Shown: positions 35,423-48,328, counted from the stretch's first letter. The stretch: DNA of 64,000 nucleotides from Bacillota bacterium (GCA_023421955.1 JAEZSE010000001.1:13110-77109); one strand, 5' to 3'. Made by a program: numbers and translations. Notes: generated by a model not told the origin, from the sequence alone.

Positions 35423-36664
35423 TTATACAACCGAAGTTTGTTCCTTGTCAAACCTAAAGTAGTACCCTTTTGCTTCATTGGCAAGGCGCAACCCCCGTGC
35501 TTCCACCGTTTCGCGGATTGCGGGCAGAGTGGTTTCTGTGGCAGTGGTGATCAGCTGCCCATCTCCCGGCAGCAAGGCGCACAGCTCGCCATACAGACCG
35601 GAGATGTCAGCGAATCCATCGGTTGCACTTTCCACAACTATGAGATCATAGGGGCCTGGAAACTGATCACTGATGCTTTGATATGGCCCATACATGGATT
35701 TGCGGCAGACGGTGGCCAGGTCCGCAAGGGTGTGCGGCGCATCGGCCAAATAGTCGATTGCCACGTCCTCCACACCAATGCGGCGATACATGTTTTTGAT
35801 CTGCAGCAGCGTGGATCCGCAGGAGCCGCCCAGACCTAAAATGCTCACCGGGCCCTGGCGCTTGTACCAGTGCAGGTTGACCACATCCATGTCAATATGA
35901 GCCGCTGCCCAGGAGTCCACGCCGAACTTTTTGATAAACAAGGTTCGATTGCGCTGGGGTAGGTTGTTTTTTTCGTATTCGGCGTTGAAGGTTACCGAGC
36001 CATAATGGTGCACGTAGGTGTCGCCTGCCAGGATGAGCCGCCAGCCCATTCGCCGCAGCTTGAAGCTGATGGCGTCATCGTCGTAGGCACCGGGGTTGAA
36101 ATCCTCGTCAAACCACCCGGCATCAGCAATGGCCTTGGCGCGGAAAAGGCAGGTGTAGGTGACCAGCTTCATCCGGTCTTCCCAGAGCCTTGGGTTGCTT
36201 CGATTGCGGCGATCGGCCAGTGCGTGCAGTTGCTCAAGAGTTTCATAGGGCAGATTCACCTGTTGGCGGTTGGAGGAGAACCCGCACACCGGTACGGCCA
36301 TGGCAATTCTCTCATCCGATTCCATAACGGTGACCAGGTTTTTCAGCCAATGGTCGGTTGCCACGATGTCGTTGCTCAGGTTCAGCACGTATTTGCCCTC
36401 GCCCAGTTGCAGCCCCCGGTTGATGGCCCGGTCCACGCCGATGTTTTCCTCAAACCGCAGCTTCTTTTTGTGGGGCAGGCTGTCGAAGTATTCGGCTGTG
36501 CCGTCGGTGGAGCCGTTGTCCACGGTGATCAGCTCATAATCCACGCCGTCGGTGTGTGCGATCAGGCTCTCGTAGCATTGTTTTGTGTAGTCCAGATGGT
36601 TGTAGGCCAGCAGCACCACGCTCACTTGTGGCTTATGCTCAGGCCTGGGTTCTGTCAGCAGCAT
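35423..36664 (-). CDS. Family-2 glycosyltransferase fused to a Rossmann methyltransferase-like C-terminal domain (paralogue A)
   Basis: VSVVLLAYNHLDYTKQCYESL..YELITVDNGSTDGT, a DED region, and C-terminal ILGLGGSCGST...YDLIVVE. Start set at the Met after GGAGGA. Confidence 0.75.
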   Translation of the reverse strand: MLLTEPRPEHKPQVSVVLLAYNHLDYTKQCYESLIAHTDGVDYELITVDNGSTDGTAEYFDSLPHKKKLRFEENIGVDRAINRGLQLGEGKYVLNLSNDIVATDHWLKNLVTVMESDERIAMAVPVCGFSSNRQQVNLPYETLEQLHALADRRNRSNPRLWEDRMKLVTYTCLFRAKAIADAGWFDEDFNPGAYDDDAISFKLRRMGWRLILAGDTYVHHYGSVTFNAEYEKNNLPQRNRTLFIKKFGVDSWAAAHIDMDVVNLHWYKRQGPVSILGLGGSCGSTLLQIKNMYRRIGVEDVAIDYLADAPHTLADLATVCRKSMYGPYQSISDQFPGPYDLIVVESATDGFADISGLYGELCALLPGDGQLITTATETTLPAIRETVEARGLRLANEAKGYYFRFDKEQTSVV

Positions 36665-36677
36665 GGGCTCCTCCGGT

Positions 36678-46089: not shown

Positions 46090-48117
46090 CTATAGCTCAA
46101 CTTTGAGGATCACAATGTTGGCTACTACGTCCTGCTCTGGCAGGAATACAGTGTCTCCTGTCAGGTTCACCAACCGGATCGTTGAGGGGACTGACCCAAC
46201 TGATACAAATGCTGTGCCATCGAGGTTGCCTATGAGGTTTGGTGTAGTCGCAAACACATTGCCCGCGCCATTCAATTGAATTGCAAAGGAGACGTTTGTG
46301 GCCGCCGCTGCGCCTGCTATTGCTACCCACCATGCAACGAAGTAGTTTCCTGCTGCTAGTATCGTGAACTCGCCGGTAACGTCACTGTAGGTGACGGAAG
46401 GCGCCATATCTACGACCACATTGTCGAAAACCACCACGCTACCATCCGCTATTGTTGATCCGCCGACGACTCCGCCCAATTGGGCCTGTATGCCGCGAAG
46501 CCGTGTTGTTACCACACCGCTTGCCAGTGTGATGATCTCTGCCTTGCAGTTGGAGACAAAATCGATATTGCCGCCAGATTGTACGACTGTCATGCCGAAT
46601 TGCTGTTGTATTACCACTCCGTTTGCTACGGTTTGGCCGCCCGCATTGATCGAAGCATTCGTACCGACCGGCAAATAGGCACGGATTGCTGCCTCGCAGT
46701 TTGCTTCGCAACCCACAGGCGCTGGGTCAGGAACAGGAAGATAGGTGATTCTCTCATCATATGCAGCGCTGGTAACCCGAATGGCCGCAATTCTGCAAAT
46801 GGAGAGAGCTTCCTCCACAACACCCTGGGCATTCTCCAGCAGGAACAACCCTGCATCCGGATTGCTGTCTGGCGGTGGAAACAGTGAGCCCGGCCTTCCG
46901 CTGGCGTTGTCACCGCTTTCCATGCTCACAATCACGTTTTGGTCAGGATAGAACTCAATGATCTGCTCAATGATATTGCGCATTTGGGCCACGCAGGCGC
47001 ATTCTGCTGTATCTGAGGATTCGCCCCTTGGCCCGGTCGGCCCGGTCGGCCCGGTTGGTCCTGTGGGTCCAGTTGGCCCAGTTGGCCCAGTCGGTCCAGT
47101 CGGTCCTGTGGGACCTGTTGGTCCAGTCGGTCCAGTCGGTCCAGTTGGTCCAGTCGGTCCAGTTGGCCCAGTCGGTCCAGTTGGCCCAGTCGGTCCGGTG
47201 GGTCCAGTTGGCCCTGTCGGTCCAGTTGGTCCTGTCGGTCCGGTGGGTCCAGTTGGTCCAGTTGGTCCGGTGTCACCGGTTGGCCCTGTATCCCCTGTAT
47301 CGCCAGTCGGTCCAGTTGGTCCAATCGGCCCGGTCGGCCCAGTCGGTCCTGTGGGGCCTGTTGGCCCTGTCGGTCCGGGGATGGTGCTCGGTGCACCGGT
47401 CGGCCCGGTCGGTCCCGTTGGGCCAGTGGGGCCTATTGGTCCGGTCGGTCCAGTCGGTCCGGTCGGGCCAGTGGGACCAGTATCTCCTTGTGGTCCGGTG
47501 GGGCCAGTGCAGCAGGGGCCTGTGGGCCCAGTCGGTCCAGTCGGACCTGTTGGCCCTGTTGGGCCGGTTGGCCCGGGGATGGTGCTTGGTGCGCCGGTGG
47601 GCCCAGTCGGTCCAGTCGGTCCTGTTGGGCCGGTTGGGCCTGTAGGGCCAATTGGCCCCGTTGGGCCGGTCGGTCCTGTGGGCCCATGGAAAACAATCGG
47701 GGGACATCGGCAAGAACCGTCGCGGCCGTCGCGCCCATCGCGCCCATCCTTACCATCTTTACCATCTTTGCCGTCGCGCCCGTCTCTTCCGTCACGGCAG
47801 CAGCATTCGTTCTTTTTCTCGCATTTGTCTTGGTGTGGGCGGCGGCACTCTCTTTGGTGGAAGAACTCTTCTTCTTCCTCATCTATCCAGATATACCGGG
47901 CGCCATGCCGCCGCTCGTTCTCATATCGGCTTCGGTCCAGATAAACCTCTTCCTCAGCATGATATCGGTCGCGGGGATGGTCTTGCCGGTATGCAGGCTC
48001 CTGCTCCCAGGTTCGTTGGGTTGGCCGGTCTGCATGGTGGATCTCATGATATTCCTCCCGGTCATAGTCCCGATGATCCGGGTCATCTATTCGTCTTCCT
48101 TGATATCCTGTTGGCAT
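46090..48117 (-). CDS. Collagen-like triple-helix repeat protein with BclA/C1q-like C-terminal domain
   Basis: About 74 G-P-T-type triplets plus 9 GRD/GKD triplets. Last ~110 aa ([47 protein letters not shown]) resemble the BclA C-terminal fold. No signal peptide. Start set at MPTGYQ, 7 nt after GGAGG. Confidence 0.85.
47017..47685 (-). repeat. 9-bp-periodic tandem repeat DNA encoding the (GPT)n region
   Basis: GGTCCAGTC/GGTCCAGTT/GGCCCAGTC/GGTCCTGTG units. An internal longer duplication contains [12 protein letters not shown] twice. Confidence 0.9.
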
Positions 48118-48328
48118 AGTCATTCCTCCAAGCAATCTTGCTAGATTCCATCTTTTTTATCATATGTTGGTAGTGGCTGATCTGCCAGCGAGATGGTGTT
48201 GTGATAGATCCATTAACCCATCGCCTCAAATATCTTTGTATATCACCAGCGGATTGTTGATTCGCCTACCATTTCATAGTTGGATGGGATATACTGATAC
48301 CGACTCAAGTCAGCAGGAAGGTCGCAGC

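Follow-up and report, generated by a model that had tools for sequence, protein, structure and literature searches.

The locus lies in a 64-kb window (the whole stretch of 64,000 nucleotides of a Bacillota bacterium that was analysed) and consists of nine consecutive minus-strand ORFs spanning positions 35423-48117, which, together with the enzyme identities proposed for them, were recovered exactly where the first-pass annotation had placed them (Table 1). Gene starts were chosen for consistency of the ribosome-binding sites and agree with the gene calls on an identical Logan contig; for the collagen-like protein, the ATG stands 7 nt after a GGAGG. The description of the junctions as short gaps or ATGA overlaps held in part: the two overlaps originally named (40414/40417 and 42744/42747) are present and a third was added (43820/43823), but the remaining intergenic gaps measure 106, 145, 16, 145 and 13 nt, so that not every gap is short. 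As had been stated for the cluster, no Wzx/Wzy, priming transferase or ABC exporter was found in it, nor anywhere in the window, and no signal peptide or transmembrane segment was found in any protein of the locus. The presence of yunB in the window (25560-26306), which we confirmed, identifies the host as a spore former; the organism is a spore-forming, gut-type Clostridia bacterium.

Table 1. Genes, protein regions and regulatory elements of the locus, with positions in the 64-kb window.
Feature	Position	Strand	Support
Sigma-70-like promoter (11/12 match) of the aconitase-family gene that follows; shows where the locus ends	35361..35389	-	
GT2MT_A, paralogue of GT2MT_B, last gene of the module	35423..36664	-	
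RfbH / E1, CDP-4-keto-6-deoxyglucose 3-dehydrase	36678..38006	-	NF011936
DegT-family sugar aminotransferase	38152..39252	-	Pfam E=1.7e-108
Class-I/II (fold type I) aminotransferase	39269..40417	-	Aminotran_1_2
ThDP-GNAT, YerE-type ThDP carboligase fused to GNAT N-acyltransferase	40414..42747	-	Pfam, PDB
RfbG, CDP-glucose 4,6-dehydratase	42744..43823	-	TIGR02622
RfbF, glucose-1-phosphate cytidylyltransferase	43820..44590	-	TIGR02623
SigmaK-type promoter-like element ACAACAGCACCTGCCCCGGCATATCAT (AC-N17-CATAnnnT) before rfbF	44630..44656	-	
GT2MT_B, soluble GT2 glycosyltransferase with C-terminal class-I methyltransferase-like domain	44736..45983	-	
12-bp GC-rich hairpin, 20 nt behind the stop codon of the collagen gene	46043..46070	-	dG -27.2 kcal/mol, z = -4.6
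Collagen-like protein gene (Col), 675 aa, candidate BclA-type spore-surface glycoprotein	46090..48117	-	
Col: C-terminal BclA_C / C1q-like jelly-roll head (~125 aa)	46093..46476	-	AF2 pLDDT 87
Col: domain X (~160 aa), collagen-associated, two helix + 5-strand units	46525..47004	-	AF2 pLDDT 89.6
Col: collagen region with five runs totalling 80 G-X-Y triplets	47017..47790	-	Pfam Collagen E=3e-31
Col: N-terminal ~109 aa, rich in Arg/Glu/Asp/His/Tyr, with a Cys cluster (C..C..CCC) at its end	47791..48117	-	
CATATGATA, sigmaK/sigmaE-type -10-like box, 49 nt before the ATG of the collagen gene	48158..48166	-	

Both the length of the collagen-like protein, 675 residues, and its lack of a signal peptide were confirmed; its N-terminus contains no hydrophobic stretch and has no Pfam match, and no BclA-type exosporium leader (the BclA/ExsF-binding motif) was detected in the N-terminal 109 residues. 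Clostridial BclA proteins may anchor otherwise, so the absence of the leader is compatible with a location on the spore surface. The first count of about 74 triplets was a fair estimate of the 80 that we counted, of which 58 are exactly GPT, nine charged GRD/GKD triplets coming first and GPT-type triplets following. The last ~300 residues, earlier taken as one domain, turned out to form two, a collagen-associated domain that had been overlooked (domain X) and a C-terminal head. A Foldseek search of the head model against the PDB returned F-BclA (9h38, TM 0.80) and BclA (1wck, TM 0.78) within a range of 0.78-0.81, and four of five head-domain homologues matched PF18573 (Pfam BclA_C), while the head's own Pfam C1q match (E=0.005) stayed below the cutoff. 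As modelled, the C-terminus of the protein folds like BclA/C1q, in keeping with the fold originally suggested for it.

Domain X has more than 120 homologues, in which it is the terminal domain, and matched no Pfam family and no PDB entry; elsewhere, its family includes short collagen proteins, which show no linkage to sugar genes. Its resemblance to giant-virus collagen-like proteins, the strong matches of the collagen protein to PHROG tail-fibre families and the location of one domain-X homologue near recombinase and phage-like genes could be read to mean that the collagen-like gene is the remnant of a prophage tail fibre and that the sugar genes are unrelated neighbours. We consider this very improbable, as the PHROG matches are confined to the G-X-Y repeats and domain X alone matches no PHROG family, the window contains no phage genes, the spore proteins F-BclA and BclA are the closest matches of the head, and collagen genes are linked to the sugar module in several species.

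Among the sugar enzymes, RfbF (315 bits against TIGR02623, cutoff 300) and RfbG (474 bits against TIGR02622, cutoff 278) both score above the equivalog cutoffs, and RfbH (595 bits against NF011936, cutoff 423; PDB 3bcx, E=1e-130) keeps the active-site His-His pair and the four Fe-S cysteines in the window and in 15 of 15 relatives. The ThDP-GNAT protein comprises, by Pfam, the N, M and C domains of a ThDP enzyme (residues 1 to ~565) and a GNAT domain (residues ~600-777). The best PDB match of its ThDP domain is 5ahk (E=1e-128), which we take to be PpYerE, with the next chain at 3e-92; the domain carries a GDG-N24-NN motif and, judged by sequence, is closer to the YerE type than to AHAS, and its gene sits beside rfbFGH in nearly all of 80 related loci. 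ThDP and GNAT are separate neighbouring genes in two relatives (L086 and L088) and fused in some other genomes, which indicates that their functions are linked. DegT matches perosamine synthetase (3bn1, E=6e-76) and its nearest solved relatives are C-4 aminotransferases, a kinship that clashes with the use of C-4 by YerE unless the branch carbonyl is the target of DegT. The class-I aminotransferase is an accessory that only some relatives have.

Of the Yersinia-type CDP-3,6-dideoxy route proposed at first, RfbF, RfbG, RfbH and the YerE-type ThDP enzyme stand, but E3 and YerF do not. No E3 reductase (AscD/DdhD, with FNR-like and 2Fe-2S ferredoxin domains) was found in the nine genes or the scanned ORFs of the window, and the gene order of the relatives leaves no space for an E3 gene; the Fe-S ligands of E1 are conserved despite the absence of E3, the reductase that E1 requires. 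Likewise, no YerF-type ketoreductase was found, RfbG being the sole SDR of the Clostridia module. Since E3 and YerF are missing, the product is not yersiniose. From the enzyme set we infer that it may be a branched N-acetyl-amino 3,6-dideoxyhexose, the order of the biosynthetic steps and the end product being conjecture.

Full-length identity between the two GT2MT proteins is 48%; each combines a GT2 domain with a weak Methyltransf_11 match (Pfam E=0.006) and is devoid of TM-like segments (KD19 peaks at about 1.1). In C. paraputrificum, a GT2MT homologue accompanies another NDP-sugar pathway, as would be expected of the transferase. GT2MT_A is the invariant final gene of a module whose order, rfbF-rfbG-ThDP/GNAT-(class-I aminotransferase)-degT-rfbH-GT2MT preceded by another GT2MT paralogue, is conserved in at least 14 further Clostridia species, Oscillospiraceae, Caproicibacter, Desulforamulus and Cellulosilyticum being among the lineages.

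The box CATATGATA upstream of the collagen gene was found as first described, including the want of a convincing -35, as neither an AC nor an ATA element lies at the right spacing. An identical CATATGATA stands at -55 of the collagen gene in one relative (L009), and a CATAnnnT box at -25 to -60 precedes 8 of 17 cluster-linked collagen genes as against 8.9% of control ORFs. The element before rfbF has the form AC-N17-CATATCAT, its -10 box beginning 47 nt upstream of the ATG, and is one of only four AC-N17-CATAnnnT matches when both strands of the whole window are counted. Nine of 14 relatives (10 of 15 loci with the window) have a sigmaK-type element in front of rfbF, compared with 4 of 232 unrelated ORFs, and its conserved form across the loci is (t/g)aAC-N17-GCATATAGT. 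SigmaK controls bclA1-3 of C. difficile, and its consensus combines AC with a shared -10 (PMC3789822). These matches make late mother-cell (sigmaK) control a candidate mode of regulation of the locus. The hairpin behind the collagen gene, whose T tail is weak, is a candidate terminator or attenuator. Given this hairpin and the promoter-like element before rfbF, the single 12.7-kb operon headed by the collagen gene that was originally envisaged is unlikely, and the locus probably comprises two or three co-regulated units.

The enzyme set might instead belong to a vegetative cell-envelope glycan (O-antigen-like, S-layer or wall polysaccharide) with a yersiniose-like sugar: RfbF/G/H with a YerE-type enzyme form the classic set for O-antigen dideoxyhexoses, Gram-negative or otherwise non-sporulating lineages account for most of the 80 related loci, and some database records label GT2MT homologues 'O-antigen biosynthesis protein'. 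That origin seems improbable to us, because flippase, polymerase, ABC exporter, priming phosphoglycosyltransferase and O-oligosaccharyltransferase are absent from the window and from the 14 Clostridia loci, where no export or priming genes lie beside the module, the transferases are soluble, the sigmaK-type promoter-like element is conserved, and YerF is absent, whereas the Gram-negative loci have an RfbG-like SDR (24-27%) beside the ThDP gene.

Eight of the 14 informative loci have a BclA-type collagen gene at most 10 kb from the module, in most cases right next to it; Pfam BclA_C is above cutoff in L005, L006, L013 and L086. Assuming 20 collagen genes per genome, a generous figure that gives ~10% per 20-kb window, we estimate the chance of such linkage in 8 of 14 loci at P about 1e-5. 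Among more distantly related YerE-type CDP clusters, those of Clostridium and Paenibacillus have collagen-like genes too, as against 0 of 44 non-Firmicute loci. In the other 6 of the 14, no collagen gene was found within about 8-10 kb of the sugar module. The comparison of gene neighbourhoods therefore bears out a conserved module that lacks export genes and often has a collagen gene nearby, but leaves 'dedicated', the word first used for the glycosylation system, unproven, since in those six loci the module has no collagen neighbour and the acceptor could be another spore protein or a glycan. A sporulation-specific module that decorates other coat or crust proteins or builds a spore-associated glycan, with the collagen gene just a neighbour belonging to the same late mother-cell regulon, is a possibility to which we give limited credence. 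Besides the six loci, the module's own promoter-like element and the hairpin separating the collagen gene would favour it, as would extra GT2+TPR transferases in some relatives and large GT4/GT2/CBM96 proteins near the module in L086, both suggesting longer glycans, and Bacillus has known genes for spore polysaccharides, spsM among them (PMC4191935; compare B. subtilis sps). Against it, BclA-type linkage in eight of 14 species of different families is far above chance, and GPT-rich collagen repeats are the established substrate of BclA O-glycosylation (PMC12357932).

The BclA proteins of Bacillus anthracis and B. cereus share with the locus protein a GPT-rich collagen-like stalk and a C1q/BclA_C head, and their collagen regions bear anthrose or cereose (PMC12357932), the latter a CDP-derived, C-branched sugar (PMC12357932, PMC7725333). 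There as here, a rare 6-deoxy sugar is assigned to a small operon that lies close to the structural gene or is linked with it (rml, antABCD for anthrose, CDP-cereose), with no export machinery and with mother-cell expression, which for our locus is predicted. The CDP-cereose operon, reportedly of four genes, is said to have been described by Li et al. in J Biol Chem in 2017. In cereose the branch comes from a SAM C-methyltransferase, whereas here a ThDP carboligase is predicted to supply it, and the locus adds E1 3-deoxygenation, one or two aminotransferases and a GNAT. It also differs from the Bacillus systems in its transferases, a distinct GT2 + MT-like family, in the additional domain X and missing exosporium leader of its protein, and in its host, from an anaerobic Clostridia lineage. 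The suggestion that a CDP route was new for collagen glycoproteins thus fails for the use of a CDP sugar, known from cereose, and survives for the ThDP/aminotransferase/GNAT chemistry; the locus is probably a new sugar variant of a known decoration of spore-surface proteins.

Relative to the pathways of yersiniose A in Yersinia pseudotuberculosis (DdhA-D/Asc, YerE, YerF), erwiniose and caryophyllose, RfbF, RfbG and E1 are orthologue-grade matches, and a YerE-type ThDP gene among CDP-4-keto-3,6-dideoxyglucose genes, a setting described together with the family's chemistry and its variable 2-oxo-acid donors (PMC9306805, PMC12247030), is shared with the yersiniose A pathway. That pathway, however, has E3 and YerF and belongs to an O-antigen cluster, whereas our locus, in a Gram-positive sporulation context, has DegT, GNAT and, among its relatives often, a class-I aminotransferase in their place, so that its end product cannot be yersiniose A. 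In Clostridioides difficile, which we compared by description, a collagen-like exosporium gene likewise adjoins a glycosyltransferase gene (bclA3-sgtA), and SgtA glycosylates BclA3 (PMC7157674). F-BclA and L-BclA of the Bacillus ENA tip fibrils lack the exosporium leader, as does the locus protein, F-BclA being the best structural match of its head, and the Cys-rich N-terminal CC(C) motif of L-BclA-type connectors (PMC12357932) resembles its own. The scanned ORFs of the window include neither a DUF4183 gene nor one for an Ena subunit, and no F-ENA docking motif was identified; an endospore-appendage role of the collagen protein is speculative.

The central reading of the first-pass annotation, a BclA-like collagen protein of the spore surface beside a non-polysaccharide module of rare-sugar and transferase genes, came through all the computational tests proposed for it. 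We put the probability that this is a late-sporulation, mother-cell locus that builds and decorates a spore-surface fibre at roughly 60%. The collagen-like protein, from its Cys-rich charged N-terminus through triplets and domain X to the BclA/C1q head, would be made in the cytoplasm. RfbF and RfbG would yield CDP-4-keto-6-deoxyglucose, from which the E1-type RfbH would take off the 3-OH with an electron donor encoded elsewhere; the YerE-type ThDP domain would then place an acyl branch on C-4 from a 2-oxo acid that the class-I aminotransferase may provide. DegT would aminate a remaining carbonyl, most simply that of the branch, and the fused GNAT would N-acylate the resulting amine. The two soluble GT2MT proteins would move the sugar from CDP directly onto the fibre in the mother-cell cytoplasm, probably to Thr of the GPT repeats, and may also methylate it. 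The hairpin would allow a high output of the collagen gene with lower read-through into GT2MT_B, and the sugar genes would use their own promoter. Glycosylation of this collagen protein is predicted and as yet unproven, and we offer only tentatively the specific proposal that a CDP-3,6-dideoxyhexose with a 4-C-(1-acetamidoalkyl) branch, an 'amino-yersiniose', is put on collagen Thr by a new soluble GT2 + methyltransferase-like family.

Glycans of the spore surface govern the sticking, clumping and stress resistance of spores and their recognition by the host, yet knowledge of them hardly extends beyond Bacillus and C. difficile and is scantiest for the Oscillospiraceae-type anaerobes, the dominant spore formers of the gut. 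The locus offers a self-contained, conserved module for what is probably a new amino-branched sugar, together with a likely acceptor, a candidate transferase family and a candidate sporulation promoter. Since Caproicibacter fermentans EA1 and Desulforamulus ferrireducens, which have the same arrangement, are cultured, the hypothesis is directly testable. If true, YerE-type chemistry, hitherto a matter of Gram-negative and mycobacterial lipopolysaccharides, would reach into protein glycosylation on Gram-positive spores, and a new monosaccharide and a new family of protein O-glycosyltransferases would occur widely on spores of Clostridia from the gut and the environment.

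We read the nine-gene minus-strand locus, with a probability of roughly 0.6, as a sporulation locus that builds a BclA-like spore-surface fibre and decorates it with sugar. As the first-pass annotation had claimed, nine consecutive minus-strand reading frames are present, spanning 35423-48135; their starts were picked by ribosome-binding sites and agree with those called on a public contig of identical sequence. For the ThDP-GNAT protein, a 796-aa reading frame gave no match in an exact look-up, and the true start shortens it to 777 aa. Three junctions are ATGA overlaps, the remaining gaps measure 106, 145, 16, 145 and 13 nt, and a signal peptide or membrane-like segment is absent from all nine proteins. 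The 145-nt spacer between degT and rfbH (38007-38151) carries dense GC-rich inverted repeats, such as CCCTCCCTTATGAAGGGGGG, GACCTCCGCAGAGGTC and CCCGCCCGCAGGCGG, which might serve in processing or attenuation within the sugar unit.

Table. Positions of the locus genes and the rfbF element, and of tandem transferase genes in related loci from other genomes (L numbers)
Feature	Located in	Position	Strand	Remarks
Col, collagen-like protein	window	46090-48117	-	675 aa; ATG 7 nt after GGAGG
GT2MT_B	window	44736-45983	-	
RfbF	window	43820-44590	-	
RfbG	window	42744-43823	-	
ThDP-GNAT	window	40414-42747	-	777 aa
Class-I aminotransferase	window	39269-40417	-	
DegT	window	38152-39252	-	
RfbH	window	36678-38006	-	
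GT2MT_A	window	35423-36664	-	
sigmaK-type element ACAACAGCACCTGCCCCGGCATATCAT	window	44630-44656	-	-10 box begins 47 nt upstream of rfbF start codon
GT2 + TPR tandem paralogues	L006	2601-4800		
GT2 + TPR tandem paralogues	L008	868-3075		
GT2 + TPR tandem paralogues	L013	1966-4168		
GT2 + TPR tandem paralogues	L086	1-1915		

The presence of yunB 9 kb from the locus indicates that the organism is a spore former. Nothing resembling a flippase, polymerase, exporter or priming transferase was found in the 64-kb window, which bears out the earlier claim that polysaccharide export and priming genes are lacking, and searches of it for Rfam families and tRNAs came back empty. Between yunB and lepA lies a low-GC island (~26000-28000; 0.40 vs ~0.57 elsewhere) containing a 437-aa lipoprotein-like reading frame (26551-27864, minus strand) that has no Pfam match. 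Downstream, at 52584-58275 on the minus strand, genes for a melibiase-family protein, a GH43 glycoside hydrolase and a transglutaminase-like lipoprotein stand in a row and appear unrelated to the locus.

Col, the only collagen gene in the window, encodes five parts: an N-terminal region of ~109 aa, highly charged (Arg/Glu/Asp/His/Tyr) and ending in a cysteine cluster (C..C..CCC), nine charged GRD/GKD triplets, 71 GPT-type triplets (58 of them exactly GPT), a ~160-aa domain that we call X (46525-47004), and a head domain of ~125 aa. The head has only five detectable homologues, four of which match Pfam BclA_C; its AlphaFold model is confident (pLDDT 87) and is best matched by the tip-fibril head of B. 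thuringiensis F-BclA (9h38, TM 0.80) and by B. anthracis BclA (1wck and 3twi, TM 0.78-0.81), with C1q and TNF-family heads ranking next. Thus, the BclA/C1q-like C-terminus described in the first-pass annotation was correctly recognised, F-BclA and BclA coming first in the structure search, but the domain X that precedes it had been missed. When the 310-aa C-terminus was aligned as one piece with the two sets of homologues, the BclA_C homologues were wrongly placed on domain X; this alignment was dropped and the two domains were modelled separately. Collagen stalk and head fold are features that Col shares with the BclA family, while a Bacillus-type N-terminal leader was looked for in Col and not found. 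By analogy with CC-motif connectors (PMC12357932), cross-links from the Cys-rich N-terminus may tie the fibre to the spore or an appendage. That Col is instead a prophage tail fibre is extremely improbable: the one observation in its favour, strong PHROG 'tail fiber' matches, is driven by the low-complexity G-X-Y repeats, and domain X alone matches no PHROG family. A 328-aa 'GPV'-repeat reading frame on the plus strand (46958-47944) is not a gene but a mechanical antisense reading of the GPT repeats.

Domain X starts with 'CxCVxQMRN', and its more than 120 homologues at 50-70% identity are short collagen-like proteins that end in this domain. With 215 representative clusters among 1.84 billion proteins the family is small, and X sits almost always at the extreme C-terminus of its protein. 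No Pfam family was obtained for it and a PDB search gave no significant match. Its confident model (pLDDT 89.6) consists of two units of a helix plus five strands, for which the best structural matches, in a viral structure library, were collagen-like proteins of two giant viruses, Klosneuvirus (E = 3e-12) and Tupanvirus (E = 1e-8). The joining of X with BclA_C is an unusual trait of the window protein, and sugar genes were not found beside ordinary domain-X collagen proteins elsewhere, so that X has no general sugar link. At 10001-14863 of L084 (ERZ28580452 scaffold_1), a short domain-X collagen protein lies amid a serine recombinase and phage-like genes, together with two more long collagen-like reading frames and a separate 113-aa protein that consists of BclA_C alone; it appears that collagen genes form clusters and travel as cassettes.

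With the ThDP-GNAT protein as query, a scan across 185,579 species genomes yielded 80 loci, which were scored by local BLAST, HMM and G-X-Y scans; the closest relatives of this protein in the genome collection are only ~57% identical. Twelve of these loci belong to Clostridia (Oscillospiraceae and 'Ruminococcaceae' MAGs, Caproicibacter fermentans and unclassified Bacillota) and keep the gene order rfbF-rfbG-ThDP/GNAT-(class-I aminotransferase)-degT-rfbH-GT2MT_A, with GT2MT_B upstream in some. The order is identical in two further loci reached through look-ups of GT2MT homologues, those of Desulforamulus ferrireducens and Cellulosilyticum sp., where ThDP and GNAT are separate adjacent genes; occurrence as fused or adjacent partners is a classic sign of joint action in one pathway. 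Since the class-I aminotransferase is found in only about half of the loci, we regard it as accessory. The Clostridia modules are flanked by unrelated housekeeping genes, and a check for polysaccharide export genes beside the module, proposed in the first-pass annotation, revealed no export or priming genes in these loci.

A GT2MT homologue of Clostridium paraputrificum has a different NDP-sugar pathway (3-amino type) as its neighbour, which fits GT2MT being a transferase that uses whichever sugar its neighbours make. In this locus (L087, ~1-16800) the homologue is 39% identical, the pathway genes encode an NTP-transferase, a dehydratase, a 3,4-isomerase, a DegT and a hexapeptide acetyltransferase, CLIPPER-domain proteins and seven unannotated ~150-aa proteins are encoded nearby, and a collagen-like reading frame lies ~9 kb away. 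Several relatives of the window locus have, between the collagen gene and rfbF, two tandem ~365-aa GT2 + TPR glycosyltransferase paralogues (Table), in the position that GT2MT_B takes in the window. The substrates recognised by transferases with TPRs are usually proteins.

The CATATGATA box at 48158-48166 upstream of Col, reported earlier with no -35 element, is indeed present, and neither an AC nor an ATA -35 was found for it. L009 has an identical box before its collagen gene, and CATAnnnT stands at -25 to -60 of 8 of 17 cluster-linked collagen genes vs 8.9% of 327 control reading frames; no CATAnnnT box was found upstream of GT2MT_B in the window. Of greater weight is the complete sigmaK-type element before rfbF (Table), one of only four matches to AC-N16/17-CATAnnnT on both strands of the whole window. 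It agrees with the AC / CATA-type consensus of sigmaK, on which C. difficile bclA1-3 depend (PMC3789822). With the consensus (t/g)aAC-N17-GCATATAGT(A/G), it precedes rfbF in L002, L004, L005, L007, L011, L052, L086 and L088, and partial forms occur in L006 and L013; in L007 it also stands before GT2MT_B, while only 4 of 232 unrelated reading frames of the same loci have such an element. The promoter type, the soluble transferases and the complete absence of export and priming machinery all argue against a vegetative envelope glycan locus, which we regard as very improbable. The Col stop codon is followed by a 12-bp hairpin (dG -27 kcal/mol, z = -4.6), and a near-consensus sigma-70 promoter of an aconitase-family gene lies just beyond GT2MT_A. 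Judged from the sequence, the hairpin and the promoter-like element of rfbF make the single nine-gene operon proposed earlier less likely than two units; the likeliest layout is a Col unit, possibly reading through into GT2MT_B, and a seven-gene unit from rfbF to GT2MT_A, both of which would be late mother-cell.

Conservation of the collagen gene with the sugar module, which the first-pass annotation proposed to check, holds in part: of the 14 informative loci, eight (the window, L003, L005, L006, L008, L009, L013 and L086) have a collagen-like gene no more than 10 kb away and in most cases right beside the module, but the other six (L004, L007, L011, L014, L052 and L088) have none nearby; L002 was too short to judge and was left out. 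We estimate the chance of finding such a gene in 8 of 14 loci at ~1e-5, even for genomes that carried 20 collagen genes each. The collagen proteins of L005, L006, L013 and L086 pass the cutoff of Pfam BclA_C, and large collagen-like genes also adjoin more distant YerE-type CDP clusters of Clostridium (L015, L017) and Paenibacillus (L023, L028, L040, L078), while none of 44 non-Firmicute loci has a collagen-like gene. This recurrence argues against the idea that the module decorates other spore proteins or builds a spore glycan, the collagen gene being only a regulon-mate; the six loci lacking a collagen neighbour and the separate promoter-like element of the sugar genes favour it, and on balance we consider it unlikely.

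The cluster-linked collagen proteins shuffle the same modules (L003 9373-10476, minus strand; L006 583-2460; L013 803-1903), and some open with a C1q-like segment ('NVIFD..ISYN..TGVITFNE.GRY..NWWVA') and end with BclA_C as well. The L003 protein has a short collagen stretch together with domain X and a BclA_C-like domain, the latter two in an order unlike that of the window protein. In Desulforamulus ferrireducens (L086, CP019698) the collagen gene (11714-13867) directly follows GT2MT and encodes an N-terminal CBM96 carbohydrate-binding module, 137 GPT/GDT triplets and a BclA_C head; CBM96 also occurs in large GT4/GT2 proteins neighbouring this gene.

RfbF, RfbG and RfbH each exceed their NCBIfam equivalog cutoffs, making these family assignments firm. 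RfbH aligns end to end with the Yersinia E1 3-dehydrase 3bcx (E = 1e-130) and retains the His-His found in place of the usual PLP lysine as well as the four [2Fe-2S]-site cysteines, features common to all relatives examined. The 777-aa protein contains all three ThDP domains plus the GNAT, and its ThDP part matches PDB 5ahk, which we take to be the YerE homologue of Pseudomonas protegens, at E = 1e-128 vs 3e-92 for the best acetolactate synthase. In enzymes of the YerE type, a 2-oxo acid (C3 to C8 depending on the family member) donates an acyl carbanion that is added to C-4 of CDP-4-keto-3,6-dideoxyglucose (PMC9306805, PMC12247030). The nearest solved relatives of DegT are C-4 aminotransferases (perosamine synthetase at 6e-76), while the PDB relatives of the GNAT domain, SpeG-like proteins and the sugar N-acyltransferase FdhC, are weak, so its acyl donor cannot be inferred. 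GT2MT_A and GT2MT_B are full-length paralogues, 48% identical, with a weak class-I methyltransferase match in the C-terminal region of both. No E3/AscD-like reductase was found among the window's reading frames, and a YerF-type ketoreductase is absent; the pathway thus opens like the yersiniose route but cannot finish there, and the system is not a member of that pathway.

From the observed gene identities, folds, synteny, promoter-like motifs, lack of export genes and transferase solubility, we infer how a decorated fibre would be made. CDP-glucose would be converted to its 4-keto-6-deoxy form, E1 would remove the 3-OH with a reductase encoded elsewhere, and the ThDP domain would place an acyl branch on C-4, the 2-oxo acid possibly coming from the class-I aminotransferase. 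DegT would then aminate a carbonyl, most simply that of the branch because C-4 is no longer a ketone, and the fused GNAT would N-acylate the amine. In the mother-cell cytoplasm, the GT2MT paralogues would transfer the sugar from CDP to the fibre protein, whose GPT threonines are the most plausible acceptors by comparison with BclA. The methyltransferase-like domain of these paralogues might methylate the sugar or merely bind substrate. We hold the exact identity of the sugar with much less confidence than the overall reading.

In its manner of working, the system resembles BclA with its rare-sugar operons. BclA collagen regions carry anthrose or cereose (PMC12357932) and cereose is made as a CDP-sugar (PMC7725333), so it was too broad to claim, as was done earlier, that collagen-like glycoproteins offer no precedent for a CDP route. 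More than 200 uncharacterised YerE-like enzymes have been predicted from gene clusters in a recent review (PMC12247030). Several features appear to be new: a Gram-positive sporulation locus that joins YerE-type ThDP branching to deoxygenation by E1, amination and N-acylation, the ThDP-GNAT fusion, the family of GT2 transferases with a methyltransferase-like domain, and the X + BclA_C architecture.
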